From: an uncultured Bacteroidales bacterium
Lineage (GTDB): Bacteria; Bacteroidota; Bacteroidia; Bacteroidales; PUMT01
Direction of reading: 5' to 3'
DNA length: 64,000 bases
Assembly (NCBI GenBank): GCA_964421595.1
Contig: CAYQXY010000014.1
Coordinates: 10,536 to 74,535 of the forward strand
Shown: positions 11,063-38,851 of the stretch, one piece after another
How positions within the stretch are numbered: the stretch's first letter is position 1
Layout of the letters: the number at the start of each line of letters is the position of its first letter
Program-made: the position numbers and the translations under genes
The notes under the pieces: model-generated
Told to the model about the DNA's origin: nothing
Databases searched by the model: none
The model's input: only the letters and a program-made list of their open reading frames with translations

Positions 11063-11063
11063 C

Positions 11064-12155
11064 ATGACTATTCAGGATATTAAATCAGTTTTCAGCAAAT
11101 TCGAGGTTTCAGGAAGCTGGCTGGAAGGAGCACCAACAGGCTCGGGACATATACACGGTACATGGCTGATACAAACCACCGACAAAAATCATAAAGGCTA
11201 TATTCTTCAAAAGATAAACAACAAAGTGTTTCCGCCTGTTAAGGAGATGATGGATAATATCCATTTAGTTACCACTCATATCAAAGGAAAAAACAGGGAA
11301 GGCGGTATGCAGGTTCTGGAGATCATCAATACTGTCGGCGGTAAAAATCATCTCACCGATCATAACGGCAACTACTGGAGGTTATACCGGAGAATTTTTC
11401 CCGGCTTCAGTTACGACACTGTACCTAATGAAAATGTAGCATGTGAAGCCGGAAAGGCTTTCGGGCAATTTATAGCTGACCTCCGCGATCTTCCCGCCGG
11501 TTTAATTTTTCCTGTCATTCCCGGATTTCACTCGGTCGAAATGCGGTATGAAAATTTCAGGAAGGCAGTGAATTCTGATTTGAAAGGACGGGTTGAAGAG
11601 GTAAGAAACGAGATCTATTTTGCCAATTCCCAAATTGACAATATGCGACTAATTCCCCGTATGGAAAAAGAAGGAAAGCTTCCTGTTAGGATAACCCATA
11701 ACGATACAAAACTGAATAATGTTCTTTTCGATGAGAATGACAATGCCGTGTGTGTTATAGATCTTGATACTGTCATGCCCGGGCTTTCCCTGTATGATTT
11801 TGGCGATACTATACGTACCGCAGCAAATACAGGAGAAGAAGATGAAGCTGAACTTGAAAATATTCAGTTCAGTATGCCGGTATTCAAGGCATTTGCCGAT
11901 GGTTTTCTCGAAAGAACTATTTCGTTTCTGAGTCCGGAAGAAATCGAACTCCTTCCTCTTGCATCCCAGTATATGACATATATAATGGGAATAAGGTTCC
12001 TGACAGATTATATTGATGGTGATCTCTACTACTCAACGCATTACGAAAAGCAAAATCTCAGGCGTTGCAGGGCGCAATTCAGGCTTATGGAGTCTATGAT
12101 GGATAAATACAGGGAAAGCCAGGAAATAATTTCAGATTTAGCCAAAAAATATTAA
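11064..12155 (+). CDS. APH-fold anomeric sugar kinase (N-acetylhexosamine 1-kinase NahK / AmgK-like)
   Basis: I moved the start to the ATG at 11064 (MTIQDIK...), since the track start 11025 would overlap the upstream gene. The catalytic loop ITHNDTKLNNVLFD (HxDxxxxN) and metal-binding VIDLDTVMPG are present. Blocks LYDFGDTIRTAANT and IRFLTDYIDGDLYYSTHYEKQNL closely resemble Bifidobacterium NahK as I recall it. Confidence 0.7.
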   Translation: MTIQDIKSVFSKFEVSGSWLEGAPTGSGHIHGTWLIQTTDKNHKGYILQKINNKVFPPVKEMMDNIHLVTTHIKGKNREGGMQVLEIINTVGGKNHLTDHNGNYWRLYRRIFPGFSYDTVPNENVACEAGKAFGQFIADLRDLPAGLIFPVIPGFHSVEMRYENFRKAVNSDLKGRVEEVRNEIYFANSQIDNMRLIPRMEKEGKLPVRITHNDTKLNNVLFDENDNAVCVIDLDTVMPGLSLYDFGDTIRTAANTGEEDEAELENIQFSMPVFKAFADGFLERTISFLSPEEIELLPLASQYMTYIMGIRFLTDYIDGDLYYSTHYEKQNLRRCRAQFRLMESMMDKYRESQEIISDLAKKY

Positions 12156-18231: not shown

Positions 18232-19053
18232 TTAACGGTATACCGGACTAACCCATTTTTCATGCGGATGATACTTACTCTCTGCTGCCCATCTGATGCC
18301 ACGCTTTTGGATTTCCAGTGCTTCGGGCACCTCAAAATCCTTAACGACATGACCCAGTGCTGAATAAAAGACCCTTCCTTTGCCGTAGTACTTTTTCCAG
18401 ACCTGCGGCATAACAGCCCCACCGATCCAGCCGGCATGCTCATCGGTAAATGTTGTGGTGGCCAGAACCTTGACATTCGGGTCTACATGCATATAATACT
18501 GCTCGGAATTCATCTCAAAATCCTTCAGTCCGCGAGTAACCATGTCTCTTTTGTCAGTAATGTTTACCTTATATTTTATTACACCACCAGGGTGGGAAAC
18601 CCATTGCCCCCCGGTCATAAACTGATATTCAGTATTATTCCTGAATGAATCACAAAGTCCTCCGTGCCATCCGGCAATGCCGCAGCCATTCTTGACAGCA
18701 TTAAGCAATCCCTTTTCCTGATCGCCGGTAATCTGCCCCATTGTATATACCTGCACAACAAGGTCGATTGATGACATAAGCTTTTCATCGAGATATGAAT
18801 CGAGATTATCGGACACTGTAACATCGGCTCCTTCCTCCTTCATCCAGGGTACAAAAAGATCTCTGCTCGGAACAGGCTCATGACCATCCCAGCCACCATA
18901 AACAAACAGCACCTTTTTTCCTTTCAGTGTTGGAGACGCATTCGTTTGAGGTTCAGGAGCAGCAAATACCGACCTTGCACCTATTAGTCCAATACCTCCC
19001 ACCAATGCCGTGGTTCTGATAAAGTTTCTTCGTGATGATGAATGATTTTCCAT
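18232..19053 (-). CDS. TAT-exported ThuA-like (trehalose-utilisation family) protein
   Basis: 273 aa with a twin-arginine leader (SSRRNFIRTTALVGGIGLIGARSVFA). The ThuA-like class-I glutamine-amidotransferase-like fold blocks (KVLFVYGGWDGHEP, GWHGG) are present. It starts 60 nt downstream of rhaA. Confidence 0.75.
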   Translation of the reverse strand: MENHSSSRRNFIRTTALVGGIGLIGARSVFAAPEPQTNASPTLKGKKVLFVYGGWDGHEPVPSRDLFVPWMKEEGADVTVSDNLDSYLDEKLMSSIDLVVQVYTMGQITGDQEKGLLNAVKNGCGIAGWHGGLCDSFRNNTEYQFMTGGQWVSHPGGVIKYKVNITDKRDMVTRGLKDFEMNSEQYYMHVDPNVKVLATTTFTDEHAGWIGGAVMPQVWKKYYGKGRVFYSALGHVVKDFEVPEALEIQKRGIRWAAESKYHPHEKWVSPVYR

Positions 19054-19113: not shown

Positions 19114-20385
19114 TTATTTTCTTTTTGAGAGAACTTTTTTCTCATAATTACTAATTTCAAGCAGATAATCTTCTGCAACCGGCACATTGCTTACCATACA
19201 ATAATAGTCATATACTGCACCAAATGGTTTGGCCTTCAATATCTCCAAAAGAGCAAGTCTTTCAAAATTCCTTCCCCCTGTCTCGTATTTCCGTAACAGA
19301 TCTGCGGGCTCCAGAAGGGCATACAGGAATGCGAGCTGAACTGCGCGTACACCGATAACATATGCTCCTACCCTGTTAATGCTGGCATCGAAAAAGTCCA
19401 GTCCAATGTTCACTCTGTCAAGTGCATTGCAGCGAATTACTTCCTGTGCAATAAGTTGTATTTCATCATTGAATATGACCACATGGTCGCTGTCCCATCT
19501 TACTCCCCTGGTCAGGTGAAGTAAAATCCGGTCAATAAACTGCAGGGTGGCAGAAATCTTGTCACCTACCTGCTCTGTTGGATGGAAATGTCCGTTATCA
19601 AGACAAATCATTTTATCATTTCGGGTTGCATATGCAAGGTAGAATTCATGTGAACCGACTACCATTGACTCAGACCCAATACCAAAAAGTTTACATTCAA
19701 GAGAATCCTGAATGTGTTCCTGCGGATAACTGACACTGTATATCTCATCGAGCGAATCTTTCAGAAGTGCCCTGTGTTCATAACGATTGACAGGTGTGTC
19801 TTTTGAGCCGTCAGGAATCCAGATATTGTGAACACAGGGTGTTCCCAGCTGCTTACCCATTTCTGCAGCAATCTTCCTGGTGCGTTTGACATGTTCAATC
19901 CAGAATTTACGATGTTTTTCATTCCTGCTGGATAGAGAAAAGCCATCATCGGCAAACGGATGTGAAAAACAGGTCGGATTAAAATCCAGACCGGTACGAT
20001 GTCTTTTTGCCCAATCGATCCACCTCTGAAAATGTATTGTTTCTATTTTATCCCTGTCCACTTTCCTGCCTCCAAAATCACCATATATTGCATGAAGGTT
20101 TAGTCTCTGTTTACCTGGCAGCAATCCAATGACCTTGTCAATGTCCTGCATTACCTCATCAATTGTACCGGCCTTTCCGGGATAATTGCCTGTTGCCTGA
20201 ATCCCGCCTCCGCCAAGCGATGAATCTGCCGTTTCAAATCCGCCAACATCGTCGGTTTGCCAGCAATGCAGGGATATTGGCAGGTCATTCAGCTTCTTTA
20301 ATGCTACTTCAGTGTCAACCCCAAGCAGATGATACTGCTGCTTTGCCAGTTCATATGCTCTTGTAATTTCCAAATAGTTTTCCAT
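19114..20385 (-). CDS. rhaA: L-rhamnose isomerase
   Basis: 423 aa and collinear with E. coli RhaA as I recall it. Shared blocks are SLHCWQTDDVGGFE, GGGIQATGNYPGKA, LNLHAIY, GLDFNPTCFSHP, DNGHFHPTE, RWDSDHVV and GLDFFDASINR. Confidence 0.92.
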   Translation of the reverse strand: MENYLEITRAYELAKQQYHLLGVDTEVALKKLNDLPISLHCWQTDDVGGFETADSSLGGGGIQATGNYPGKAGTIDEVMQDIDKVIGLLPGKQRLNLHAIYGDFGGRKVDRDKIETIHFQRWIDWAKRHRTGLDFNPTCFSHPFADDGFSLSSRNEKHRKFWIEHVKRTRKIAAEMGKQLGTPCVHNIWIPDGSKDTPVNRYEHRALLKDSLDEIYSVSYPQEHIQDSLECKLFGIGSESMVVGSHEFYLAYATRNDKMICLDNGHFHPTEQVGDKISATLQFIDRILLHLTRGVRWDSDHVVIFNDEIQLIAQEVIRCNALDRVNIGLDFFDASINRVGAYVIGVRAVQLAFLYALLEPADLLRKYETGGRNFERLALLEILKAKPFGAVYDYYCMVSNVPVAEDYLLEISNYEKKVLSKRK

Positions 20386-20754
20386 AGGAGATATTTACAT
20401 CAATCTTAATATATTTATAACCGGTAATGATTTTCTGAAAGATTACCCCGTTATTTCAACAAATATAACACCTATCACTATAAAATGCGGCAAATTCCCG
20501 GAATTTATGTTCTCATACCCCACTGACATTTACCTCTTACTGTGGCAAGTTAATAAATAATGTCACGGCTGCACTGAAAAAATATTAATAAATCATTTCA
20601 ATAACTGTTAATGGATAATCATCCTGATCTTATTAAACCTTTCATCAATGATGAATTACAAAAAAACTTACATCAATAGTATCATTAATGCTAATTATTG
20701 TATTTTTAGAAGCCATTCTAAAAAAATTTACGCTTAAACCCAATACCATTAAAA

Positions 20755-22143
20755 ATGAAGGCTTCTTCCATAACAAGCAAACTTGACAAACTTTACGAAT
20801 TTGACCGTGAGCCTGTTACCAAAAACAGACTTCAGGGAATCGGCAATTTCCTGGGATTGTATGCAGGTGAACACGTAGCGGGCACCGAGTTTGTGATTGG
20901 TATTTTGTTCGTTGCCCATGGCGTTTCTGCCGCCGACCTGTTTATCGGGGGCTTTATCGGAAACCTGCTTGCCGTGCTGAGCTGGGCATTAATAACATCC
21001 CCCATAGCTGTTAAAGAGAGACTGTCTCTTTACTGGCAACTGAGGAAGATTTGCGGACCGGTACTTGTATTTATATATAATATTGTAAATGCGCTTATGT
21101 TTTGTTTTCTGGCCGGCGCGATGGTGGCTGTATCTGCTACTGCAGTGGGTATACCTTTCAATATTGCAATGCCATCGCTGGGTGACCTTTATCCCAGCAG
21201 TATCGGGTGGGTAGTTACTGTAATATGTGTGGGCGGGGTAATTACAGCTATTGCAATAATGGGTTTCGAGTCCCTGGCCAGATTTGCAAAAACCGCTGCT
21301 CCCTGGATGTTCCTGATATTTGTGGCAGCAGCTGTCAACACTTTTCCAAAGCTTGGAATTGAACCCGGATTGGGAAACTTCTGGCAGGTGGCCAATGATA
21401 CCATATGGACCGGAGTTGCAAGGGAAGGACAATCTCAGTTTACAATCTGGCACATAATATTCTTCACCTGGCTGGCTAATGCAGCTATGCATCTGGGCAT
21501 GTCAGACCTGTCAATATTCAGATACGCAAAAAAATGGTATTATGGTTTTGCTTCTGCTGTCGGGATGTTCATGGGGCATTATATTGCGTGGATTGCCTCG
21601 GGAGTTATCTATGCCGCGGCGACAAGTGATGCACCGGGCCCGGTTGCCTATCAGGCAATTGGCATTGCGGGGGCTATCTGCGTGGTAATTGCAGGATGGA
21701 CCACCGCAAATCCAACCCTCTACAGGGCAGGCCTGGCCCTGCAGGTTGCATCTCCAAACTGGCAAAGATGGAAGGTGACACTTATTGCGGGATTAATTAC
21801 TACCATCGCAGCAATGTTCCCGGCCCTTGTTATGAGGTTGCTGGACTTTGTAGCGCTATACGGGCTGGTTTTAATACCGATGGGTGGAATAATATTTGCA
21901 GATTTTTACCTGTTCAGGAAAATAGGACTGGAGAGCTATTTTGCAGAGAAACATAAGTTACTCTTTAATACTGCTGCCGGAATTACCTGGTTTCTGCTGC
22001 TTGCCCTTGCTCTGATAGCCAACAGGGTATTCGGGATAGAACTTTTCTTTCTGCCCGTACCGACATGGATTGCATCTATCGGACTGTATATTGTGTTTTC
22101 AATTGTTTATCAGAAACATGTAGGTAGCAGAATGGCAGTTTAA
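20755..22143 (+). CDS. Polytopic membrane transporter, NCS1/purine-cytosine-permease-like (family assignment weak)
   Basis: 462 aa with about 12 hydrophobic helices. It is divergent from rhaA. It does not resemble the roughly 340-aa RhaT (DMT) or MFS sugar carriers by eye. Confidence 0.55.
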   Translation: MKASSITSKLDKLYEFDREPVTKNRLQGIGNFLGLYAGEHVAGTEFVIGILFVAHGVSAADLFIGGFIGNLLAVLSWALITSPIAVKERLSLYWQLRKICGPVLVFIYNIVNALMFCFLAGAMVAVSATAVGIPFNIAMPSLGDLYPSSIGWVVTVICVGGVITAIAIMGFESLARFAKTAAPWMFLIFVAAAVNTFPKLGIEPGLGNFWQVANDTIWTGVAREGQSQFTIWHIIFFTWLANAAMHLGMSDLSIFRYAKKWYYGFASAVGMFMGHYIAWIASGVIYAAATSDAPGPVAYQAIGIAGAICVVIAGWTTANPTLYRAGLALQVASPNWQRWKVTLIAGLITTIAAMFPALVMRLLDFVALYGLVLIPMGGIIFADFYLFRKIGLESYFAEKHKLLFNTAAGITWFLLLALALIANRVFGIELFFLPVPTWIASIGLYIVFSIVYQKHVGSRMAV

Positions 22144-22178
22144 TTAAGCAGAGTTGATTAATTTAATAACAAAAAGAT

Positions 22179-22394
22179 ATGCAATCAGGAATTAGAAATT
22201 ACAAAACGATCCTTATTATAATCGCAATATCAGGCCTGTTGCTGACAATTGTCCCCTCGTTCCTGAACTGGCAGGGGATCATTCAACCTGCACTGGTTAA
22301 TAATCTCATGCTGGCAGGCACAATATTGTGGTTTGTACCTGCGGTTTTTCTCTTTGGCATTAAGTCAGATGTAAATGTAGACAGTGACGACTGA
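22179..22394 (+). CDS. Small two-helix membrane protein (possible transporter accessory subunit)
   Basis: 71 aa, starting 36 nt after the transporter stop. It has two hydrophobic helices (ILIIIAISGLLLTIVPSF and LMLAGTILWFVPAVFLFGI) and an acidic tail. Confidence 0.4.
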   Translation: MQSGIRNYKTILIIIAISGLLLTIVPSFLNWQGIIQPALVNNLMLAGTILWFVPAVFLFGIKSDVNVDSDD

Positions 22395-22413
22395 CTCTAT
22401 AACATGCCACTTT

Positions 22414-22728
22414 TCAGTCCATATGAAAAACCCGTTCCAGTGCAATGGAGACCGGTGAGAAATCATTATTTGTCTCCATAATATCTGACATATGCTTCCA
22501 CCATGTTTGAACGATCTTCTCTTTGCCAAGGTCCTGTGATGATTTTTCGGCTGATTGTCGCTGGACTGCGAACAGGGTATCGGTATCGTGGTCCAGAAAG
22601 ATAGTGTAATCTGCAATACCACTGTCCTTTAGGAGTGATACCAATTCAGGCCATATTTCATTGTGTCTCCTGATATACTCATCCCGGCAGCCTTTTTTAA
22701 GTTTCATCTTAAAAGCGATCTTCTCCAT
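22414..22728 (-). CDS. rhaM: L-rhamnose mutarotase
   Basis: 104 aa. IAFKMKLKKGCRDEYIRRHNEIWPEL...YTIFLDHDTDTLFAV matches the RhaM/YiiL pattern (YxRRHNxIWPEL). Confidence 0.9.
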   Translation of the reverse strand: MEKIAFKMKLKKGCRDEYIRRHNEIWPELVSLLKDSGIADYTIFLDHDTDTLFAVQRQSAEKSSQDLGKEKIVQTWWKHMSDIMETNNDFSPVSIALERVFHMD

Positions 22729-22890
22729 TCTGGTTAGATTTAATTACATCGGCAAAACTTAAAGCTATTAACCTAAATATAAGCGCTTAAGACTTAACGG
22801 CAGAGTAGTTCCCACGGATGAATCACCTTAAAGAACCTGCTACCGGACAATCCTGTCATCTGCACTTAGAATTAAATACTGTTTTTTTGA

Positions 22891-24153
22891 TCAGACAGGC
22901 CTTGCATGTTCAAGAAGAAACTTTTCTGCCTCAGATGACCATATGAACTCATTTGCAGCCAGCATCCGGTGCAGCTCTTTGAAACACGGGTCGATCCTGC
23001 CAAGCTTTTCAAAATCTTCAATGGCAGTGAGCGGCAAAGAAATATTTGTATAGATCAGCTTCTTCCCACCGGGTATTTCAGGCAGCCGTTTGGTAGTATC
23101 TATCACCGCATCGAGTCCCCCGATATGGGTAATCATGGCCGCAGGATTTATCTTACCGGCGGCCATCAACTCCAGGGCCTCTTTCATGTCATCGGTATTG
23201 CCACCGCTTGTACCAACTATATGGGTAAAAGCGTAATGTACATTATAGAAATTCATCTCAGCGCTGAATGCGGGGTCAGATGGTCCGGCGAAAAAGTTAA
23301 GACAGCCGTCAAATCCAAGGATTTTGTCTCCTGTTTCAATAACAGGCCTGACAGGGGCGAAAACAAACACATCGTCATAGCCCATGTCACCGGTAAAGGA
23401 CCGGAGCTTAGCTACAGGATCAGTTACTCCGGATGTATTTAAATATATAAGCTCGACATTGTTTTTTGCCGCTTCCTCAACTGTATGGATCTTTGCAGCC
23501 CGCTCAAGCCGCTCATCATCAATATCAGTTACAACCAGCAGCCGTGGCCTGATATCACGGTGAATTGCATAATCGACAGCCCCGAGGCCCATTGGCCCTG
23601 CCCCGGCAAGAATTGCCATCGTTCCGCCCTCCTTTATGCCCATCTCGTGATGGTAAACACCATTTTTAGTATGGTATGAGGCATTAAATGCCCCAATTAC
23701 ACAAGACATTGGTTCTGACAGGGAAGCGTGGAAAAAACTCTCTCCGTGGTAGGGCAAAAGACAGCCCGTCTCCATAACTTCCTGCGGAATAATCACATGA
23801 GTGGCATCACCACCGATAAACCTGAATGAATAACCTGGTGCATCAAGGCTCCCCTTGTAGTTCATTGCTGGCTGGATTGAAAATTTATCACCTGGCTTGA
23901 ACTGATCTGCCCATTTCTTTCCTACCTCAATGATTATACCACTAAACTCATGTCCTATTATTGTCGGATTTATATGAACATCGTCAGGAACCCTTTTGTG
24001 ATCGGCTCCCTGCTCCACTGCCTTGAATGATGACATGCAAATACTGTCTGAAATCACCTGTGCCAGTATCTCATCATCCTTCATAAGGGGAAGCTCAAAT
24101 TCCTCAAGTCTCAGGTCATTCTTTCCGTATAATCGTACTGCCTTGGTTTTCAT
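22891..24153 (-). CDS. Zinc-dependent medium-chain dehydrogenase, L-sorbose-1-phosphate-reductase-like
   Basis: 420 aa. The N-terminal MKTKAVRLYGKNDLRLEEFELP, a GHEFSG zinc-ligand block and the Rossmann LAGAGPMGLG are present. Length and N-terminus resemble proteins annotated SorE-like, from memory. Confidence 0.7.
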   Translation of the reverse strand: MKTKAVRLYGKNDLRLEEFELPLMKDDEILAQVISDSICMSSFKAVEQGADHKRVPDDVHINPTIIGHEFSGIIIEVGKKWADQFKPGDKFSIQPAMNYKGSLDAPGYSFRFIGGDATHVIIPQEVMETGCLLPYHGESFFHASLSEPMSCVIGAFNASYHTKNGVYHHEMGIKEGGTMAILAGAGPMGLGAVDYAIHRDIRPRLLVVTDIDDERLERAAKIHTVEEAAKNNVELIYLNTSGVTDPVAKLRSFTGDMGYDDVFVFAPVRPVIETGDKILGFDGCLNFFAGPSDPAFSAEMNFYNVHYAFTHIVGTSGGNTDDMKEALELMAAGKINPAAMITHIGGLDAVIDTTKRLPEIPGGKKLIYTNISLPLTAIEDFEKLGRIDPCFKELHRMLAANEFIWSSEAEKFLLEHARPV

Positions 24154-24324
24154 AAGATTAATTTTAAAAAAATTTTAACCAGGAATAGCGCTGGCTAAGA
24201 ATACGTGATTAGTTAAGCCTGCAGCAACATGCCGGGCTTTTACCGGGATCAACGCTACAAGCCCCATGCTGCAAAAATATAGTTCAGGCTAAACCCCGCC
24301 GGTGGTACTAAAAGCCGCCAGAAA

Positions 24325-26298
24325 TTAATGCAGCATACTCTGGCCGCCTGTCACAGGCACGGCCTGACCGGTTTCATACCTCTGGTCAATAATATAATAC
24401 ATCGCCTTCATTATATCCTCTACCCTGCAACCCCTGCCCGCGGGAACCTGCGATTCATAAAACCGCTTTACATCATCAACAGTTTCTGCTCCCGGCACCT
24501 TTCCTGCCCGCAGATATTGAACAAACAGCCCGTTCTCCGGGTCAGACCATAAAGGCCCTTCGAAGAAATTTCCCGGGCAGATGGAATTGACCTTTATATT
24601 ATAAGGAATGAGCTCGAGCGCAAAAGATTGTGTAAGCCCTATTCCCCCAAATTTACCACCGGCATATGCAAAATTCCTGTTGCTGCCTTTGAGTCCGGAT
24701 TTGGAATTTATCTGAACAATATCGGTAAAATGCTCACTATTATATTTATTCTGCAGTTTCAAAACGGCAGAAGCATATTTTGCACAGTGGAAATAACCTG
24801 AATAATTAACCCGTGTTACTCTTTCAAAAACATCTTCTGTCATCTCCTCAAGAGAGCCTGCATAAAGAATGCCGGCATTGGAAACCATAAGATCGAGTCC
24901 CCCGAAATTCCTGACTGTATCTGACACAAGCGACCTGACAGACTCAGGATCGGCCGTATTGCACCTTATGAACACTGCCCGGTTCTTCCCACCCCTTTGA
25001 TTCATTTGATCAACCAGGTCCTTCGCGGCATTTTCGTTGATATCGGCAATTACCACATTTGCTCCCTCATCATATAAAGAAGAGGCAATACCTGCACCGA
25101 AACCCATGGCTCCTCCCGTAACAATTGCTATTTTACCGTTAACAATGCTATGCCTTTTCTCTCCCTTAGCTACCTGTCTTCTGTAATTTTCAACCTCCCA
25201 TGAATCAATGAAAGCAATCTGCCGGTCATTCATAAACCTTGGTCCCCCGAAACTCTCCGAAAACAGGCTGATCTTCATAAGATCTTCAAAAACATCCAGC
25301 GAGGTGCTGGCCGATTGCCAGTTGTCACCTGCAGCCAGGAGTCCGTAATCCTTAATCATTATAATATGTGGGAAGTAGCCGTTATCATTAACAAACGCAG
25401 GTAACTTTTCCTGAAAAGCGGCAATTACATCTTCTGGCGAATCTGCCTGATCGATGTATAGATAGGCCGACTTGCAGTAAACAATTATATCTGGTGTAAA
25501 TGGAGCCGCTACCCTGGAAAAGGACTCCTTGTCCTTGCAAAAATGAGCAATAAGGCTGTTGTTTCGCAGACTAAGAGTTTTAAGGCTGTCGCCGGGTGAG
25601 AGTAACATTCTGAGTGCAGGAAGCAGATTTGTTACATCAGGAACAGGTAATTCCGAAATTTCAGGAACCTCTTGCAGCCGGGCTTTGATTTTCTTGAAAA
25701 TATCAGCATAAATTGACCTTATCTCCCCGGTGGTGTTGGCGGATACAAATACGCCATGATTTTCGAGAAATATTATCTGCGGATCATTGCCATTCTCACT
25801 CCTGTAATTTTTAATCTCTTCGTGCACTTTGCAAAAAAGTATATAGCCAGGGTCAGTATAGGGTATATAAAGCGCATCACTGAACAGTTCTCCGGTAATC
25901 CTCTGTGAATCAAGGCCGCATAACAGTGCATTTACAAGTGTAGGATGCAGGTGAATAACAAAGCTGTAATCAATTATATCATGCAGGTTGGTTTCGACCG
26001 AAGGCCTGAGCTTAGTAGCAGGATCAACACAGCTTGCATACAGGTCAGCCTTAACCTGTTCTTCCCTGGTATCAGGATCGCTGCTGTATTTCTTCCCCGG
26101 CATTTCACTCAGTCTGGAACGGTCCATTACTACAAACCCGTCCTGATCGATGGTTGCCAGGCCGGTACCACTGGCCTTGATCCACAACCTCTTTTCATCC
26201 TTAAATGAGGTATTACCCCCGCCCGCAATAACATAGTCGTTGTCAGCACCATAAAATCTCGAAATATCAATAAGGTCCTGTATTTGTTTATCAATCAT
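24325..26298 (-). CDS. Bifunctional class-II aldolase/adducin-domain plus SDR fusion (RhaEW-like rhamnulose-1-P aldolase/lactaldehyde dehydrogenase)
   Basis: 657 aa. The N-terminal roughly 390 aa are aldolase-like (GGGNTSFK, HLHPT). The C-terminal SDR part has IAIVTGGAMGFGAGIA and catalytic YAGGK. Confidence 0.85.
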   Translation of the reverse strand: MIDKQIQDLIDISRFYGADNDYVIAGGGNTSFKDEKRLWIKASGTGLATIDQDGFVVMDRSRLSEMPGKKYSSDPDTREEQVKADLYASCVDPATKLRPSVETNLHDIIDYSFVIHLHPTLVNALLCGLDSQRITGELFSDALYIPYTDPGYILFCKVHEEIKNYRSENGNDPQIIFLENHGVFVSANTTGEIRSIYADIFKKIKARLQEVPEISELPVPDVTNLLPALRMLLSPGDSLKTLSLRNNSLIAHFCKDKESFSRVAAPFTPDIIVYCKSAYLYIDQADSPEDVIAAFQEKLPAFVNDNGYFPHIIMIKDYGLLAAGDNWQSASTSLDVFEDLMKISLFSESFGGPRFMNDRQIAFIDSWEVENYRRQVAKGEKRHSIVNGKIAIVTGGAMGFGAGIASSLYDEGANVVIADINENAAKDLVDQMNQRGGKNRAVFIRCNTADPESVRSLVSDTVRNFGGLDLMVSNAGILYAGSLEEMTEDVFERVTRVNYSGYFHCAKYASAVLKLQNKYNSEHFTDIVQINSKSGLKGSNRNFAYAGGKFGGIGLTQSFALELIPYNIKVNSICPGNFFEGPLWSDPENGLFVQYLRAGKVPGAETVDDVKRFYESQVPAGRGCRVEDIMKAMYYIIDQRYETGQAVPVTGGQSMLH

Positions 26299-26310
26299 CT
26301 GAAAAAATAT

Positions 26311-27543
26311 TTATCCATTTAAAAACCTGTCAATAACAGCCTTGCCAAGTGTAATAAACTCACTGTTTTTTTCTTTAAATTCCCTTTCGGGGAATGAAAC
26401 GTATCCCTGTTCGCCCTTCGCACGCAAATACTGATGGGCGGCAACAATACACGCCCCTTCGTACCCGACAATCCGAAGTTCTTCATCAAGAGGAACCCCG
26501 CCCCTGGCAGAAACCTTCAGGGGATCGAGCGAAGGTGTGTTATGCTCGGTTCCGAACATAACAATAAATCCTTTTTCCCTGAAAAAAGTTACAAACGATT
26601 TAAGGATATTTAGGTCATTTCTTCCCGGTATAAGCTCAATACATGAAACATCCCACGATCTGAGACTTTTATACAGAGCCTCAGCATCAGACTCAAACTC
26701 AGTTTTCCAGCCCCTGGTGTCATCCAGTAAAACCGGGTAACAGGGGATGCCACCACCATCGCGGATTATTGAGATGATCTCACCCAGATCAAGAAAAGCC
26801 GCCGGGTCTTCCTCTACAAATGCAGCTCCGCCAGCCTTTAGCATCCTGCCCCTTATATCGTTTTCAACTGCTGCCGGACTGGTAACATCTGCAGAGGATT
26901 CCTTACCACCGTATAAAGTTTTAAGAAACTCCTTCCTTTCTTCGTCCGAACTGCACTTCACCTCCATCATCAATCTGACGGCACGGGCGATGTGTCTTTC
27001 CCTTACCATCCCTTTTGTAAACCTCTTCTTAATTTCATCAAAATCAAGATGCAAACTTCCATCTGCAGATTTCAGCTGTTGATTTAATTTTTCAGTCATC
27101 TGCCTGACCTGCCTGTGGCTTTCTGTGGTGATTCCGATTATCTTCTCAATTGACAACGGAGAAAAACTGACAGGAAAATCAAGGCCCTTCCCGCTGAAAT
27201 ATATGCGCCCCGGATTATTTGGATCGTTGACCCTTATTCCGTCCTGTTGCTCATTTTTCAGCAAGCCCATAAACTCGATGTTGAAAAGGGGAAAAACCTT
27301 ATATTTTATGCCAAACCGGGAAAAATCTTCATAACCAAGTGTAGTATTAAAATCGTTTATACCAAGTATTCTTACCTGCTCCCGCGAAGCAAGAATGAAT
27401 GCCTGCTGAGTGTCATCAAAGGCACTGAAGGAATATGGCGTATGAATATGTCCATTCACATCGGGAACCCTGGAAGCTTCTTTTTCTTTATAGCTGGCTA
27501 TCAAAATATCCCTGTCGGGAAATCCGTCCAAAAAATTAATCAT
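26311..27543 (-). CDS. Uncharacterised PHP-like metal-dependent hydrolase-fold protein
   Basis: 410 aa. It has an N-terminal NGHIHTPYSFSAFDD block (an HxH...S motif as in PHP domains) and a C-terminal FGTEHNTP block. It ends 12 nt before the RhaEW-like start. I do not recognise a characterised orthologue. Confidence 0.45.
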   Translation of the reverse strand: MINFLDGFPDRDILIASYKEKEASRVPDVNGHIHTPYSFSAFDDTQQAFILASREQVRILGINDFNTTLGYEDFSRFGIKYKVFPLFNIEFMGLLKNEQQDGIRVNDPNNPGRIYFSGKGLDFPVSFSPLSIEKIIGITTESHRQVRQMTEKLNQQLKSADGSLHLDFDEIKKRFTKGMVRERHIARAVRLMMEVKCSSDEERKEFLKTLYGGKESSADVTSPAAVENDIRGRMLKAGGAAFVEEDPAAFLDLGEIISIIRDGGGIPCYPVLLDDTRGWKTEFESDAEALYKSLRSWDVSCIELIPGRNDLNILKSFVTFFREKGFIVMFGTEHNTPSLDPLKVSARGGVPLDEELRIVGYEGACIVAAHQYLRAKGEQGYVSFPEREFKEKNSEFITLGKAVIDRFLNG

Positions 27544-27745
27544 TACTACTTGTATTTATTTTAATCTTCTTCCTTAATGATATAAATATGTCATCTATAG
27601 CTTGCCACAGGTTCAGGAATCTGTATTGGACCTGCAGCAGTCTTTTAAGTCTTATTTAATACCTGAAAAAGGCCCTCAGGTATTGAGCAGTGTCATTGTA
27701 TGCAAGAACTTTCAAATCAAGTTATGCTGGATGCTCAGATAAATT

Positions 27746-28738
27746 TCAGCCCCCCTTTTCCAGTTCAGAAAGTTCAAGGTGTATGAATTTCAGATCCTCT
27801 TCAGTAAGTGAAAAACTCAATGCACCGGCATTGTCAGCAACCTGTTCAGGATCCCTTGCTCCTGCAAGCGCACATGTAATGCCAGGTTGCTGGATGGTCC
27901 ATCTCAGAACCAATTGTGAAAGAGTAGCTCCTTTAGATTCAGCAAGAGGTTTTAGTTTATCAAGAAATTTATTTACCCGTTTTATATTCTCCCTTGTAAA
28001 CCAGTATAACCCGGCCCGTGCATCTCCATCCTTAAACTTATGATCTGGACTGAATTTCCCGGTTAGCAGTCCCCGCTGCAAAGGACTATATGCAATTATG
28101 CCCACTTCATTTTCAATACAGTAAGGCACCTCTTCCTTTTCAATGTCCCGGGCCAGCATGCTGTACGGAACCTGGTTTGAGGCAACAACCGTCACATTTC
28201 CGGCAGCTTCCATCAATGGCACATCATAATTTGAAACACCGCCGGCAAGAATCTTGCCCTGCTCAATTAGCTTGTTAAGTGCTTCCATTGTTTCCTCTAC
28301 AGGAGTTGTGGGGTCGGGCCAGTGCAGCTGAAAAAGATCGAGATGATCGGTGCCGAGTCGTCGCAGACAGTTTTCACACTCTTCGATAACCGAATCGGCT
28401 GATGCATACGAATAGAGATCAATATCACCTCCCTGGTTATCTTTGGTGGCCATAAAATACTTTCCTCTTGTTTTATCCCATCTGAGCCCGAATTTGGTAA
28501 GCAATTGCACCTTATCCCTCATTCCTTTGATGGCCTCACCGGTAATCTCCTCGCTGAGGCCGAATCCATATGCCGGAGCAGTGTCAATTGAAGTGATTCC
28601 CAGCTCAATAGATTTTCTAATAGCCCTGATCGCACTGTTCCGGTCGGCTCCGCCCCACATCCAGCCACCAATAGCCCAGGCTCCGAATGCAACCGGGGTA
28701 ACATTTACATTACTTTTTCCTAATTTTCTTAGTTCCAT
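27746..28738 (-). CDS. Aldo/keto reductase
   Basis: 330 aa. LGKSNVNVTPVAFGAWAIGGWMWGG, IDTAPAYG and LDLFQLHWPD are typical AKR blocks. Confidence 0.9.
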   Translation of the reverse strand: MELRKLGKSNVNVTPVAFGAWAIGGWMWGGADRNSAIRAIRKSIELGITSIDTAPAYGFGLSEEITGEAIKGMRDKVQLLTKFGLRWDKTRGKYFMATKDNQGGDIDLYSYASADSVIEECENCLRRLGTDHLDLFQLHWPDPTTPVEETMEALNKLIEQGKILAGGVSNYDVPLMEAAGNVTVVASNQVPYSMLARDIEKEEVPYCIENEVGIIAYSPLQRGLLTGKFSPDHKFKDGDARAGLYWFTRENIKRVNKFLDKLKPLAESKGATLSQLVLRWTIQQPGITCALAGARDPEQVADNAGALSFSLTEEDLKFIHLELSELEKGG

Positions 28739-29088: not shown

Positions 29089-31557
29089 TTAAACCCCCTC
29101 CCGGCTCCTTTTTAATATAGTTTCATCGCTGAAATCCTCAGACACCTTGTGTCCGTCCAAAGGAAGTATGCGTTGATGAATGGCATCTATTATCCAGTCA
29201 ACCTGAGGGAAGAAATAATTTTCGAGCTCATGAGCAGGCACTATCCAGTTCCTTGATCCAACAACCACAGGAGGAGCATCGAGGTGATCAAAAGCAAGGT
29301 CGGTTATTTTCTGCGCCATGTCATTAAGGAACGATCCCCTTGAACTTGCATCTCCGGTAATAAGTATCCTGTTCGTTTTTTTGACTGAATTTATTACAAG
29401 CTCATAATTGAACGGTACCAGGCTCCTTGCATCTATTATCTCGGCCGATAATCCATATTTGTCTTCCAGTATTTTAGCAGCATCAATCGCCCTGTACAAT
29501 GTGGCTCCAACGGTAAGAATTGTAATATCACTACCCTTTCGTTTAATATCAGGCTCACCCAGAGGAATTTCATAATAGCCTTCAGGTACACCCCCATCAT
29601 GGAAATGCTCACCAATATCATAAATTCGCTGGCTTTCGAAATAAATTACAGGATCAGTACCCTGCAGGGCTGAATTCATCAGTCCCTTTGCATCATAAGG
29701 TGTTGCCGGAAAGACAACCTTCAGTCCGGGAATATGTGCCACCAGTGAAGTCCAGTCCTGTGAATGCTGGGCACCATATTTTGAACCTACAGAAACCCTT
29801 ATCACAACAGGCATCTTAATGATATTTCCACTCATAGCCTGCCACTTGGGCAACTGGTTGAATACCTCATCACCCGAGCGGCCAAGGAAATCACAATACA
29901 TTATCTCTGCAATCACCCTTCCACCAGCCATGCCATAACCAATTGCAGTTCCTACTATAGCACCTTCAGAGATCGGCGAATTGAACAGCCTGTTATATGG
30001 AAGCGCCTCTGTGAGTCCGCGATAAACAGCAAAAGCCCCGCCCCAGTCACGGTTTTCCTCACCATATGCAACCAGTGTGGGATCTTTATAGAATCTGTCT
30101 ATAACTGCTTCAAAGATGCCGTCCCTTAGCTGGTATTGTTTGAGTTTGGAAAAAGGTTTTCCATCCTTATCCAGGGCAAATCGCTCTTTTTTCATTATTT
30201 GCTGGACCCGTGGATTCTCCTCCATCGGAATAAGTGTCTCTACCTCCCTGTCTTCCATTTTATCGACCGATCCTTCCGAGAATATCATCCGGCCTATTAA
30301 TTCAGGATCAGCCTTTAAGTTCATAAGCGGAGAGACTTTTTCATCAATAGACAGTTTCATTGCCTTAACTACCAGTCCCTGAGTTTTCTCCTGTATTTTC
30401 GCAATGACATCTTCACTCACCACACCTTTAGCAAGCAGGCCTTTTCCAAATCCTTTGACAGAATCGCACATCATCCAGGCTTCAAGTTCCTCCTTAGACC
30501 TGTATGAAGATGCATCTGATGGAGAATGTCCCGAATAGCGGTAAGTCAGCGTATCAAGCAATACCGGCCCCTTCTTGTCTTCCAGTATTTTTTTCTTCCT
30601 CCTGAAGGCATCGATAACAGCAAGGGGATTATAACCATCTACCCTTTCGGCATGCATCATTTCGGGATTAACACCTGCACCGACCCTTGCAAGAATATCA
30701 TATCCCATGGTTTCGCCCTGGGTCTGCCCTCCCATGCCGTACTGGTTATTCATAAAGTTGAAAATAACCGGTAATCCCCCGTTATATGCACCCTCCCACA
30801 AAGTCCTGAACTGATCCATTGCAGCAAATGTAATGCCTTCCCAGACGGGTCCGCATCCCATAGATGCATCGCCAATATTTGCCACAACTATTCCGGGCTT
30901 ATGATTAACCCTTTTATAGAGTGCAGCCCCTACGGAAATATCGCCCGAACCACCAACAATTGCATTGTTGGGATAAACACCGAACGGAGTGAAAAATGCA
31001 TGCATTGAACCTCCAAGGCCCTTATTGAAGCCGGTTTCTCTGGCAAATATCTCAGCCAGGGTACCATAGAGCAGAAAATCAACAGCCAGGTCCTTGACTG
31101 ATCCGTCAAACCCTTTTTCAACTACCCTGAGAGCAGAACCATCAAAATGAGATTTCATAATCTTCATCAGCTGGTCATCATCCAGCTGATGAATTGCTGA
31201 AAGTCCCTTTGCCAGGATCTCACCGTGACTCCTGTGGGAACCAAATATATAATCATCCACCGTAAGGTTATAAGCCATTCCAACAGCAGCTGCTTCCTGT
31301 CCGATTGAAAGATGTGCGGGTCCGGGATGATTGTAGCTTATCCCTTTGTATTCATTTTTTGTCTTTATCTCATGAAGCATACTTTCAAACTCCCTGATAA
31401 TATACATATCACGGTAAATCCTGATAAGATCCTCGTCTGAAAAGACTTTCCTCTCCTCATCGAGGGACTTGTTGTAGGCGTTTACAGGTATTGTGCCGAA
31501 TTTGATTTTATTGGCTTTCCTGACTTCTTTTGGATCAATAAACTGATTTTTTGGCAT
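29089..31557 (-). CDS. Fused E1 alpha-beta component of a 2-oxoacid (acetoin/branched-chain type) dehydrogenase complex, TPP-dependent
   Basis: 822 aa. The N-terminal half carries the E1-alpha TPP motif ([14 protein letters not shown]...[11 protein letters not shown]). The C-terminal half has E1-beta Pyr and C-terminal domains ([37 protein letters not shown]). Confidence 0.88.
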
Positions 31558-31691: not shown

Positions 31692-33059
31692 TTATTTATA
31701 AATGTTTATATTTTCAATTTCCTTTTTAATCTCACCAAGGAATAGCGATGCAGGAGCACCGTCTACCGCCCTGTGATCGTATGTAAGAGAAAGGCCGATT
31801 ACCGGAATAAACCCGATCACTCCATCTCCCATGTCAGCAGGCCTGTATGTAATATTATTAACTCCAAGGATACCTGTTTGCGGCAGGTTCAGAACAGGAG
31901 TGAACAGCTCCACTCCATATGCTCCCAGATTGGAAATGGTAAAACCCGCAGATTCACTGTTTAACAGCTCCGGATCAATATTTCCTTTTTTACAACTCTC
32001 AGCCAGCTCTTTCAGTTTCCGTGATAGTCCCCCGGCATTCAATTCATCCGCATCCCTCAGGGCCGGCACCATCAGTCCCCGTTCAGTATCTACAGCAATA
32101 CCGAGGTGCACTTTATTAAATACCCTCAATTCATTCCCAAGAAAATGGGCATTCATCGAAGGATGCTTTTTGAGAGCCTTTATTACCGCCAGGCATACCA
32201 TGTCATTTATACTTATATCTATATGGCCGGCTTTCCCCTTTTCAGCTTTGATCTCTTTTCTCCAGGCCAGCAACTTACGGGCATCTGCACTCATGTGGTG
32301 TGTAAGCTGGGCAGAGTTTTGCAGTGACTGGTGCATTTTTGCGGCAATGATGCGGCGCATATTTGATAACTTCACCAGGTTAAAATCGTTTCCCTGACCC
32401 GAAAGGCGGCTACCTGAAACAGAACTTTTGTATGTCACCTCCTCTTCAGTCCTGACTTTATCCGGAGCTGGCGCAGATTTAACTCCGGCATCAATCTTTG
32501 CTGCCGCTTTCTTAATATCACGTTCAATTATTCTTCCTTTTGGCCCTGTTCCATTTAATGCAGACAGGGGTATATTCAGTTCACGGGCCATCTTGCGGGC
32601 AAGTGGAGAAACACGTAATTTTTCTCCTGAACCGGTAACTACTTTATATTCCGGAGGAGAATCCTCCGATGAAGACTCTTCGATTTCTGTTCCGGTCTCA
32701 ATACCGGTTTCTGTTCCCTTGCGGACTGATCCGGATGCTGAATGCTCTTCAGGAGAGTCAGAGGGTTCATTGCCGGAAACTGCACTTTTGTCAACGGGAA
32801 CAATTGAAGCATAATTATCACCCGGATTCCCGATAACTGCAACAGTTTCGAGAACGGGAACTTCATCACCTTCTGCAAAGAAAACATCAAGCAGGATACC
32901 ATCCTCATTTGCCTCCTGATCAAATGCAGCTTTGTCTGTTTCATATGAAAAAAGGATGTCTCCTTTATTCACCTTGTCTCCTTTTGATTTATACCACCCT
33001 GTAATGAAACAGGTTTCTACGCTTTGACCCTGTCTGGGCATAATAACGGGAACAGCCAT
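31692..33059 (-). CDS. Dihydrolipoamide acyltransferase (E2)
   Basis: 455 aa. It has a lipoyl domain (ETDKAAFDQEA), a flexible S/E/P linker, a subunit-binding domain (VSPLARKMARELNIPLSALNGTGPKGRI) and the catalytic DHRAVDGA block. Confidence 0.9.
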   Translation of the reverse strand: MAVPVIMPRQGQSVETCFITGWYKSKGDKVNKGDILFSYETDKAAFDQEANEDGILLDVFFAEGDEVPVLETVAVIGNPGDNYASIVPVDKSAVSGNEPSDSPEEHSASGSVRKGTETGIETGTEIEESSSEDSPPEYKVVTGSGEKLRVSPLARKMARELNIPLSALNGTGPKGRIIERDIKKAAAKIDAGVKSAPAPDKVRTEEEVTYKSSVSGSRLSGQGNDFNLVKLSNMRRIIAAKMHQSLQNSAQLTHHMSADARKLLAWRKEIKAEKGKAGHIDISINDMVCLAVIKALKKHPSMNAHFLGNELRVFNKVHLGIAVDTERGLMVPALRDADELNAGGLSRKLKELAESCKKGNIDPELLNSESAGFTISNLGAYGVELFTPVLNLPQTGILGVNNITYRPADMGDGVIGFIPVIGLSLTYDHRAVDGAPASLFLGEIKKEIENINIYK

Positions 33060-33071
33060 AATATTATATTT

Positions 33072-33089
33072 AACTTGTATACATATGTT
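33072..33089. promoter_or_regulatory. Candidate GntR/HutC operator, site A (imperfect)
   Basis: AACTTGTATACATATGTT. It shares the left half-site AACTTGTA with site B and contains the 8-bp palindrome TGTATACA. It lies in the predicted 5' leader of the E2 gene. Confidence 0.4.
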
Positions 33090-33139
33090 ATTGATTCAGA
33101 TTTTCAGTATATTAAAAACTTCCTATATTACTGATCATA

Positions 33140-33147
33140 CAAATATA
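33140..33147 (-). promoter_or_regulatory. Candidate Bacteroidota -7 promoter box for the E2/E1 operon
   Basis: The minus strand reads TATATTTG, matching the TAnnTTTG consensus. It sits between operator sites A and B, about 80 nt upstream of the E2 ATG. Confidence 0.35.
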
Positions 33148-33155
33148 TCTATTTC

Positions 33156-33173
33156 AACTTGTAATTACAAGTT
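33156..33173. promoter_or_regulatory. Candidate GntR/HutC operator, site B (18-bp perfect palindrome)
   Basis: AACTTGTAATTACAAGTT is a perfect 9+9 inverted repeat with a GT...AC core, as seen in GntR-family operators. It sits in the divergent region between E2 (33059) and the GntR gene (33219). Confidence 0.55.
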
Positions 33174-33218
33174 AATTTACATATATTTACAATTCATTCT
33201 ATAACATGGTCATTTAAA

Positions 33219-33929
33219 GTGGATAAAAATCTTCCTCAACATCGGCGACTCTATGAAATGTTACGACGGCATATTCATGATGGAGTGTATAACGAAGGTG
33301 ATCTTTTACCATCTGAAAATGACCTGTGCAGTGTTTACCACCTGACCAGACCAACGGTGCGGCAGGCACTCTCGGCCCTTGTACAGGACGGGTATATAGA
33401 AAAGCAACAGGGAAAAGGAAGCATAGTAAGGAAAATGCCCCAGGGAATAGGTATTTTATCAGTTTCAGGCACAACAACTGCTTTAAAAAACAAAAATCTC
33501 AAAACAGAAATTATCGACAGGCCAAAAATCATTTCATGGCCTGAGAAATTCTTTTTTGGATTATCTGAACTTGAAATTGAATCGGGGTGCATATATATGA
33601 CAAGACTAAGACTACTTGATGACAATCCGATATTCTATGATATCAGTTATATTCCCGCCATTAACCTTCCAAGGTTTACATCAAGGAACTTTACAAACCG
33701 ATCCTTATTTGATATAATGCGTGAGTCATTCCAGGTAGAGATAAAAGGCGGCGAGCAGCGCATAAAAGCTATTGAAGCAGACCTTCAGAAAGGCGATTTC
33801 CTGAATGTCACGCCTGGCCATCCTATCCTCCATATGGAAAGAAAAATGACTACCAACCGACAGGAACTCAATATATACTCTTCAATATATTGCAATACGA
33901 CAGAACATTCAATTTACGGAACCTTCTGA
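33219..33929 (+). CDS. GntR family transcriptional regulator, HutC/UTRA subfamily
   Basis: 236 aa with a GTG start. The wHTH is LPSENDLCSVYHLTRPTVRQALSALVQDGYIEKQQGKGSIV. The C-terminal domain of about 150 aa is UTRA-like. Confidence 0.88.
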   Translation: MDKNLPQHRRLYEMLRRHIHDGVYNEGDLLPSENDLCSVYHLTRPTVRQALSALVQDGYIEKQQGKGSIVRKMPQGIGILSVSGTTTALKNKNLKTEIIDRPKIISWPEKFFFGLSELEIESGCIYMTRLRLLDDNPIFYDISYIPAINLPRFTSRNFTNRSLFDIMRESFQVEIKGGEQRIKAIEADLQKGDFLNVTPGHPILHMERKMTTNRQELNIYSSIYCNTTEHSIYGTF

Positions 33930-36244: not shown

Positions 36245-36463
36245 AATTTTAATTTTGGTTTAATGCTCCCGGGGTTTCCATTTTTGCAGGTGTCTGCTAT
36301 CGCTATCAGGTATGTACAGGTCATGACCGGATATTACCACAGTCTTCCTTACAAACCTAACCTTAAGATCTATAAAAATCAATATAAGGTATAAATAATT
36401 GATGTATAAAATGACTTATATATGCTACCATATTATTTAAATCTTTACCTGTTATCTGAAATT

Positions 36464-36493
36464 AAAAACCTGCCACGGACAAGTCCGGGCAGG
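36464..36493 (-). terminator. Rho-independent terminator of the hydrogenase operon
   Basis: The minus strand reads CCTGCCCGGACTTGTCCGTGGCAGG, a GC-rich interrupted stem, followed by TTTTTAATTT. It starts 27 nt after the hydC stop. Confidence 0.75.
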
Positions 36494-36519
36494 CTCTGGA
36501 GTTAATTGAAAGGCAAAGG

Positions 36520-37008: not shown

Positions 37009-37044
37009 TTATTCCTGTCCTCCTTTTTTTTAATTGAATTAGTT

Positions 37045-38835: not shown

Positions 38836-38851
38836 TATTGTCCTTGAATTA

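Follow-up and report, generated by a model that had tools for sequence, protein, structure and literature searches.

A rhamnose entry unit beside a conserved operon of putative deoxyhexose catabolism in an uncultured Bacteroidales bacterium

What completes the breakdown of L-rhamnose in a bacterium whose rhamnose genes lie without a kinase and among enzymes foreign to the canonical pathway? This question is raised by a 64,000-nt stretch of DNA from an uncultured Bacteroidales bacterium (G000:C14:10536-74535; hereafter the window), part of a metagenome-assembled genome of 4.85 Mb in 88 contigs that is 98.9% complete; the DNA sequencing run that best holds the window sequence is a stromatolite metagenome. 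The initial annotation described a single rhamnose-like cluster and offered three explanations for it: that the ketose kinase is encoded elsewhere, that an unrecognized local protein supplies the phosphorylation, or that the cluster serves a variant route with a sugar-phosphate reduction step. Our analysis leads us to lean, by a small margin over even, toward a composite region in which a rhamnose entry unit adjoins a GntR-controlled operon. The missing kinase turns out to be the ordinary part of the finding. The operon is a real, widespread and uncharacterized variant of deoxyhexose catabolism, and full-text literature searches returned no description of its gene combination, although the coverage of such searches is incomplete and their outcome is not proof of novelty.

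Two adjoining gene sets in the window

The genes of both sets are listed below. The coordinates given earlier for RhaA, RhaM, the aldolase fusion, the Zn-dehydrogenase, the aldo/keto reductase, the PHP-like protein, and the carrier with its 71-aa partner were all verified.

18232..19053, reverse strand: ThuA-like protein, immediately downstream of rhaA (Pfam ThuA, 158 bits)
19114..20385, reverse strand: RhaA, L-rhamnose isomerase, full-length (Pfam RhaA, 601 bits; NF002203, 638 against a cut-off of 572)
20755..22143, forward strand: putatively NCS1-like carrier of 462 aa, candidate L-rhamnose importer
22179..22394, forward strand: two-helix carrier partner of 71 aa, always directly downstream of the carrier
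22414..22728, reverse strand: RhaM, L-rhamnose mutarotase, full-length (TIGR02625, 113.6 against a cut-off of 99.6)
22891..24153, reverse strand: SorE-like NAD-type polyol/ketose(-phosphate) dehydrogenase of 420 aa (ADH_N and ADH_zinc_N)
24325..26298, reverse strand: fusion of a class II aldolase, a linker and a short-chain dehydrogenase/reductase (SDR), 657 aa (Aldolase_II at residues 8-191, adh_short at 389-577)
26311..27543, reverse strand: predicted PHP-superfamily (TrpH/RNase AM-like) metal phosphoesterase of 410 aa with a long helical insert, from its structure model
27746..28738, reverse strand: aldo/keto reductase (AKR), YdjG-like (Aldo_ket_red, 233 bits; NF049922, 247 against 550)
29089..31557, reverse strand: fused E1 alpha-beta of 822 aa, thiamine-diphosphate-dependent, of the pyruvate dehydrogenase (PDH)/acetoin dehydrogenase type (E1_dh, Transket_pyr and Transketolase_C)
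31692..33059, reverse strand: lipoyl E2 acyltransferase (Biotin_lipoyl, E3_binding and 2-oxoacid_dh)
33219..33929, forward strand: GntR/HutC-type regulator (GntR and UTRA), divergent from E2

The carrier, its partner, RhaM and RhaA would form an L-rhamnose entry unit, and the E2, the fused E1, the AKR, the PHP phosphoesterase, the aldolase/SDR fusion and the SorE-like dehydrogenase a second unit under putative control of the GntR-type protein (hereafter the module). The sole physical link between the two is the adjacency of rhaM, the final gene on the module strand, to the Zn-dehydrogenase gene, which ends 162 nt upstream of it; the same adjacency is found in the related locus L092. rhaA and rhaM adjoin the module in this genus only. 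The earlier picture of a single rhamnose-like cluster stands for the rhamnose entry genes and gives way for the extra enzymes, which belong to a separately regulated and separately conserved operon. Across the genus, a ThuA-like gene is a recurrent companion of rhaA, of the carrier or of the module (L090, L103, L106, L111).

The spacer between the GntR gene and E2 (33072..33194) holds a perfect palindrome, ACTTGTAATTACAAGT, at 33157-33172 together with two degenerate copies, an operator-like arrangement. No GntR-type site was found near rhaA, the carrier, the AKR or the kinase on contig C17 described below. The divergent rhaA/carrier promoter region (20386..20754) carries the palindrome TTCATCAATGATGAA at 20641-20655, the only exact copy in the genome, and because no GntR-type site lies in this spacer a regulator other than GntR would be expected for the rhaA/carrier unit. 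An operator shared by the module, the rhaA/carrier promoter and the C17 kinase was searched for and none was found; scans for sigma-70 promoters and terminators, whose models do not cover Bacteroidota promoters, were uninformative (43 found against 37 expected). Contig C34 has a second perfect palindrome of the GntR/E2 type, ACTTGTACGTACAAGT (G000:C34:34203). A GntR paralogue (34% identical) is found about 1.5 kb away from it, and at a distance of about 5 kb there is a mannitol-1-phosphate-dehydrogenase-like gene, a member of the module in other genomes. Judged by this context, the C34 site may be a split-off part of the regulon.

Conservation of the module was assessed with a profile built from an alignment of PHP-protein homologues, which the locus search needed, a single PHP sequence having retrieved nothing. 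Scanning one genome per species yielded at least 577 loci with the PHP protein, from which 80 were fetched, with two more from look-ups, and the window proteins were compared by tblastn with 81 other-species loci; many of these are on short contigs and the counts are accordingly lower bounds. The fusion is present in 77 loci, the Zn-dehydrogenase in 64, E1 in 45, E2 in 33, the AKR in 32 and GntR in 27, the last in the same position in 26-27. Wherever the contig is long enough, the order PHP, fusion, Zn-dehydrogenase is fixed, with E1/E2 usually adjacent; the fused E1, 74-85% identical across families, adjoins the PHP gene in most loci. The recurrent minimal core comprises the GntR gene opposed to E2-E1-PHP-fusion-Zn-dehydrogenase. 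In the usual layout upstream of the triad, a GFO and the GntR gene point away from E2, E1, HAD-IIA, a class II aldolase, HAD-IA and optionally the AKR, while a PfkB kinase and a sorbitol-dehydrogenase-like gene are the usual downstream neighbors. Deoxy-sugar hydrolases adjoin several copies: GH106 rhamnosidases flank the module in the closest relatives (L090 and L091; PHP protein 93% identical), RhaM, a GH78 rhamnosidase, the carrier pair and RhaA flank it in L092 (84% identical), and an alpha-L-fucosidase gene adjoins the GntR gene in L007.

In about ten species, the HAD/aldolase genes are separated from E1 by an inserted set of three genes for an RND efflux system, namely its outer-membrane protein, membrane fusion protein and pump (L015, L018, L030, L037, L049, L052, L055, L058, L069 and L084).

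At the level of whole genomes, we compared 151 Bacteroidales genomes at least 90% complete, spread evenly over about 143 genera, by Fisher tests. The module is present in 22 of them. Eighteen of these 22 encode rhaA, against 21 of the 129 module-free genomes (p 3e-9); the corresponding counts are 16 and 19 for fucI (p 8e-8), 20 and 30 for either isomerase (p 2e-9) and 16 and 26 for a RhaB-like kinase (p 2e-6). FucO (TIGR02638 above cut-off) shows the reverse among carriers of rhaA or fucI, with none in the 20 genomes that have the module and 10 in the 30 that lack it (p 0.003). All 8 kinases that share 47% or more identity with the C17 gene come from module-bearing genomes, as do 14 of the 16 RhaA proteins that share 60% or more with that of the window. 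Statistically, the module is tied to 6-deoxyhexose genes and excludes fucO in this sample, and about one in seven Bacteroidales families carry the operon in place of the textbook lactaldehyde reductase. The third idea of the initial annotation, a variant route that involves reduction of a sugar phosphate, has become more plausible, because this operon of SorE-like, PHP, fusion and E1/E2 genes is conserved, goes with rhaA and with fucI, and is not found together with fucO.

The kinase and aldolase steps

An FGGY kinase is indeed absent from the 64-kb window. A whole-genome FGGY_N search followed by NCBIfam typing identified four FGGY genes, on contigs C6, C42, C17 and C19 and none on the window's contig, which type as GlpK, XylB, AraB and one rhamnulokinase-like gene. 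The last, located beside fucI and fucP, bears out the suggestion that the kinase is encoded elsewhere:

C17:39923-41404, convergent with fucI and the major facilitator superfamily gene fucP: RhaB-clade FGGY kinase (TIGR02627, 459 bits)

Its score is below the TIGR02627 cut-off (459 against 528), yet this is by far its best model, the fuculokinase model giving 128. In a maximum-likelihood tree the C17 kinase falls within the RhaB clade (98/98 support). Its subclade (90/99) consists of module-bearing genomes only, and its sister (100/100) is the kinase encoded in L016 beside the GntR gene of the module. In other Bacteroidales families, orthologues abut rhaA, as in G023, G065, G072, G114, G123 and G147, and also lie next to rhaA in the canonical loci of G020, G025, G036, G038 and G039, giving at least 11 genomes in all, and kinases of the RhaB subclade are found a few kilobases from the module in three unrelated genomes (L016, G114 and G115). 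Within the genus the kinase is always single-copy, is 1-3 kb from fucI wherever the two share a contig, and is on a different contig from rhaA. Since the C17 kinase belongs to the RhaB clade and its orthologues adjoin rhaA, the phylogeny and gene context support the view that rhamnulose phosphorylation is covered by this unlinked orthologue. The same enzyme probably also serves L-fuculose, because no other FGGY gene accompanies fucI. Co-regulation of the orthologue with the window's genes, which had also been raised, is not shown, the search for a shared operator having found none. For annotation, it follows that an unlinked rhaA can be served by a RhaB-clade kinase.

Other kinases that keep company with these genes in relatives were considered and set aside. 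A fructosamine-kinase (FN3K)-like gene (PF03881) follows the carrier pair in Prolixibacteraceae, but the genome has no homologue of it. In 38 of the 81 loci a PfkB kinase gene flanks the module; its homologue here is unlinked, on contig C4, and is a conceivable alternative kinase that nothing specific supports. A divergent 451-aa FGGY kinase (FGGY') and a tandem class II aldolase, companions of rhaA in other module-bearing genomes, are both absent from the genome.

The sole orphan enzyme in the region, the 410-aa protein, is the local candidate for the missing kinase: its gene occupies a slot by the aldolase gene, which is a common place for a kinase, with its stop 12 nt before the start of the fusion, and the window protein has no Pfam or NCBIfam match and drew nothing useful from a PDB sequence search. 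Its AlphaFold model (pLDDT 91.3, pTM 0.90) matches with Foldseek probability 1.0 to RNase AM (9etk), the pAp phosphatase Cv1693 (2yb1) and BAD_1165 (3e0f), then to the PHP domains of DNA polymerase III, and no kinase fold is among its Foldseek matches. An alignment of 28 homologues reveals an invariant set, H32, H34, E90, H184, D274, E303, H334 and H370, that opens with an HxH motif and is typical of metal hydrolases, and several homologues carry a weak precomputed PF02811 match. With a genuine RhaB-clade kinase elsewhere in the genome, we regard it as extremely improbable that this protein is the ketose kinase; it has the confidently modeled fold of a PHP phosphoesterase, a (beta/alpha)7 barrel. 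It shares with the TrpH-type enzymes this fold (target TM-score 0.68-0.72) and a putative HxH-type metal motif, but is 13-14% identical to them, exceeds them in length by about 120 residues, carries a long helical insert and lacks a nucleotide context, being always encoded beside the aldolase/SDR gene. Its more than 5,000 homologues are mostly from Bacteroidales, and every named copy is called a hypothetical protein.

The aldolase/SDR fusion had been described as clearly RhaEW-type. Its domain architecture agrees with that description and its equivalog score does not: on TIGR02632 it reaches 237.5 against a cut-off of 567.75, and the genuine RhaEW of genome G020, with which it aligns end to end at 24% identity, scores 947. 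Sequence motifs are retained in both halves: in the aldolase half GGNTS, which binds phosphate, PSVET, with the Ser-x-Glu general base, and HLHP and ENHG, with the zinc histidines; in the SDR half TGGAMGFG and YAGGK. This SDR half scores best as a sorbitol-6-phosphate dehydrogenase (NF009050, 224 bits; PDB 5o3z, 150 bits), true RhaEW giving 129 on NF009050. RhaEW, as characterized in B. subtilis YuxG and C. aurantiacus Caur_2283, is a bifunctional L-rhamnulose-1-phosphate aldolase/L-lactaldehyde dehydrogenase whose orthologues were stated to be always in rha loci (PMC3870299), a rule that fails for the subfamily of the window's fusion. The window protein has the same three-part architecture and the catalytic motifs of both halves, and in its own genus it lies beside rhamnose genes; its general base, however, is Glu (PSVET) and that of the G020 RhaEW Asp (PSIDT), and its fixed neighbors are the PHP protein, the SorE-like enzyme and E1/E2 rather than rhaA and rhaB. 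On this sequence comparison it is not a RhaEW equivalog and belongs to a distinct subfamily with the RhaEW architecture, so aldolase/SDR fusions below the TIGR02632 cut-off should not be called RhaEW. In G020 itself, locus L095 (G020:C10, 1228-10673) is a textbook rhaB-rhaA-rhaEW-lutA-lutB-lutC array followed by a tandem aldolase gene, and there the true RhaEW travels with lactate utilization genes, in contrast to the window.

Set against the canonical rhaBADM and fucPIKA-fucO pathways of E. coli and Bacteroides, the genome has an ordinary RhaA, RhaM, RhaB-clade kinase, FucI and FucP, but its kinase is unlinked from rhaA and sits beside fucI, its carrier appears NCS1-like, and RhaD, FucA, FucO and RhaT are absent. 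True RhaEW, LutABC, FGGY' and the tandem aldolase are likewise missing from the genome, whose only good iron-containing alcohol dehydrogenase is YqhD-like. It holds two Aldolase_II genes, AraD (NF006047, 341 against 257) and the fusion. Genome G113 has a stand-alone aldolase-plus-linker half in the RhaD slot of a rhaT-rhaA-X-FGGY' operon; it shares 45% identity with the fusion over residues 2-378 and 22% with true RhaEW. This context, and the lack of any other gene in the genome that could supply the aldolase of the two deoxy-sugar pathways, make the fusion's aldolase half the best candidate for the rhamnulose-1-phosphate aldolase here, and it probably also acts on L-fuculose-1-phosphate.

The G113 operon represents an apparently undescribed second type of rhamnose operon in Bacteroidales (L120, G113:C26, 6973-11976; also L118, L124, L125 and L133). 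It occurs in two forms, one with rhaT, rhaA, a 370-aa aldolase half of the fusion family and FGGY', the other with rhaA, FGGY', a 434-aa tandem double class II aldolase and a GH78 gene. FGGY' proteins are divergent FGGY kinases of 451-454 aa that give about 65 bits on FGGY_N.

Candidate chemistries of the lower pathway

The SorE-like dehydrogenase is the most conserved gene of the module (70-90% identity); JGI names its close homologues L-sorbose 1-phosphate reductase, its best PDB match is the ketose reductase 1e3j, and its label draws on that source annotation and on general membership of the polyol-dehydrogenase family. SorE- and SrlD-type activities are the two steps that take L-sorbose-1-phosphate via glucitol-6-phosphate to fructose-6-phosphate. 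Like the L-sorbose pair SorE and SorD/SrlD, the window encodes a SorE-like Zn enzyme side by side with an SDR half that scores best on SrlD models; unlike it, the window has no phosphotransferase system or sorbose genes, its proteins are below the equivalog cut-offs, its SDR is fused to an aldolase, and the context is one of 6-deoxyhexoses. The E1/E2 pair has the E1 alpha and beta domains and the lipoyl E2 with E3-binding and catalytic domains of AcoABC and PDH, but its alpha and beta parts are fused, the operon has no E3, and the complex is embedded in a sugar-phosphate operon of a fermentative anaerobe. All its equivalog scores are below cut-off (E1 beta, 234 against 321; E1 alpha, 194 against 394; E2 on TIGR01349, 279 against 445; acetoin E2, 73 against 307). 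One E3-like gene is present in the genome, on contig C2.

We envision a scenario in which L-rhamnose is imported, mutarotated by RhaM and isomerized by RhaA, the resulting L-rhamnulose is phosphorylated by the single RhaB-clade kinase from C17, and the aldolase half of the fusion splits the 6-deoxyketose-1-phosphate into dihydroxyacetone phosphate and L-lactaldehyde. The rest of the operon would then replace the lactaldehyde enzymes (FucO, or RhaW with LutABC), the end product being probably acetyl-CoA via E1/E2 and the E3 encoded elsewhere. We hold this framework as a whole to be slightly on the probable side; within it, we infer the substrates of the aldolase, the SDR, the SorE-like enzyme, the PHP protein, the AKR and E1/E2. 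In a RhaEW-like chemistry, one of two that fit, the aldolase would act first, the SDR would oxidize or the AKR reduce lactaldehyde, and E1/E2/E3 would turn pyruvate into acetyl-CoA.

Several observations weigh against this framework. The RhaEW-like chemistry gives the SorE-like enzyme and the PHP protein no role, and a phosphoesterase has no obvious place in a lactaldehyde route at all. The SDR half is nearer to sorbitol-6-phosphate dehydrogenase than true RhaW is (224 against 129 bits on NF009050), and together with the SorE-like Zn enzyme this SrlD-like half suggests polyol-phosphate substrates rather than lactaldehyde. The GntR motif is missing from the rhaA/carrier promoter and the kinase locus, so that co-regulation is not shown, and searches of sequencing runs found metagenomic DNA and no RNA with this sequence. 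Neither rhaA, rhaM (within 10 kb) nor ThuA was detected in any of the 81 other-species loci, and the Fisher tests behind the genome-level association ignore phylogeny. Some module-bearing genomes also have a complete rhaA-FGGY'-tandem-aldolase set, so that not all of them have the fusion as their sole aldolase. Finally, in Prolixibacteraceae the triad directly follows rplM-rpsI-rpsB-tsf and precedes an inositol-monophosphatase-like gene (L022, L031, L032, L034, L062, L072 and L082), a ribosomal-protein neighborhood that is odd for a catabolic module. One of these loci, L022, is that of the cultured Mariniphaga anaerophila DSM 26910.

One way to give the unemployed enzymes a task is a carbonyl shift that bypasses lactaldehyde. 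Here the SorE-like enzyme would reduce C2 of the 6-deoxyketose-1-phosphate and the SrlD-like SDR would oxidize C5, next to the methyl group; the product, 1-deoxy-2-ketohexose-6-phosphate, would be split by the acetoin-dehydrogenase-like E1 alpha-beta and E2 into acetyl-CoA and a tetrose-4-phosphate, with the aldolase domain serving as a C4 epimerizer or a side branch and the PHP protein and AKR acting on the tetrose phosphate or by-products. The two dehydrogenase activities are encoded side by side, E1 and E2 are core members of the operon and yet fall under the PDH equivalog cut-offs, and if a 6-deoxy sugar is to supply an acetoin-type complex with a ketol substrate, the chemically natural one is a 1-deoxyketose phosphate. 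Moreover, the lack of co-occurrence between module and fucO and the absence of LutABC from the genome fit a route that releases neither lactaldehyde nor lactate. However, 77 of the 81 loci conserve the aldolase domain, which is intact and has a stand-alone paralogue in a classical rhamnose operon; by stereochemical reasoning, renumbered L-rhamnulose-1-phosphate or L-fuculose-1-phosphate would give threose- or L-erythrose-type tetrose phosphates, not D-erythrose-4-phosphate; and we know of no characterized enzyme of this kind. We therefore consider the carbonyl shift unlikely, and a shade more doubtful still the proposition that the conserved operon is an undescribed lower L-rhamnose/L-fucose pathway of anaerobic Bacteroidales that runs via an end-for-end turned ketose phosphate, split by a lipoamide-dependent complex. 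If true, such a route would retain all six carbons of the sugar, with no loss as excreted 1,2-propanediol. Alternatively, the operon could be unrelated to rhamnose and catabolize some other ketose, hexitol or polyol phosphate, sorbose-like in kind, its adjacency to rhaA and rhaM in this genus being an accident of rearrangement and rhamnose catabolism being incomplete or finished by unassembled genes. The absence of rhaA and rhaM from the other-species loci, the different regulatory sites of the two units and the fragmentation of the assembly are compatible with this, as are the common neighbors of the module: PfkB fructokinase-like, sorbitol-dehydrogenase-like and mannitol-1-phosphate-dehydrogenase-like genes, HAD phosphatases and sometimes a transaldolase. 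Against it stand the strong association of the module with rhaA, with fucI and with the RhaB-clade kinase across genomes sampled one per family, the kinase genes that adjoin the module in three unrelated genomes, and the fucosidase and rhamnosidase genes that adjoin it in L007, L090 and L092; without the fusion, moreover, the genome would have no aldolase for either deoxy-sugar pathway. We judge this explanation improbable, more so than the carbonyl shift.

Rhamnose and fucose rank among the main sugars in pectin, algal polysaccharides and mucus, and their anaerobic fate, as propanediol, propionate or lactate, shapes cross-feeding. If the operon of our favored framework turns the C3/deoxy part of these sugars into acetyl-CoA, pathway models and automated reconstructions overlook a common route; automated tools now report a missing aldolase, a missing kinase or a missing FucO.

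The carrier pair and neighboring genes

The candidate importer has no sequence match in Pfam, NCBIfam or the PDB. Members of its family are 75-88% identical and bear the database name purine-cytosine permease-like. Its structure model is of low confidence (pLDDT 55) and has CodB (7qoa, E 5e-7) as its top Foldseek match, followed by other LeuT-fold carriers, and is only indicative of a LeuT-fold, NCS1-like protein. In relatives the carrier gene adjoins rhaA, a GH78 gene or the module. Homologues of the 71-aa partner are 38-90% identical, and the window copy has no Pfam or NCBIfam match.

In Prolixibacteraceae (L114, L115 and L116; for example Tangfeifania diversioriginum), the carrier and a partner of about 60 aa are followed by the FN3K-like gene (PF03881/APH), with a GH78 rhamnosidase gene intervening once. 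This neighbor hints that the carrier may transport something besides, or instead of, free rhamnose.

Two further gene groups lie in the window on either side of the units described. At 10163-12155, overlapping NTP_transferase and APH-family phosphotransferase genes resemble AmgK/MurU, an anomeric sugar kinase and uridylyltransferase, and just upstream lie genes for a ROK protein (6791-8062) and an SSF symporter (8059-9900). The AmgK/MurU-like pair and its ROK neighborhood are the only kinase-like genes of the window and are unlinked to the cluster. Directly beyond the GntR gene, at 34103-40645, a 713-aa protein without a Pfam match is followed by a HydABC-type [FeFe]-hydrogenase set, which could matter for disposal of NADH if the operon is oxidative.

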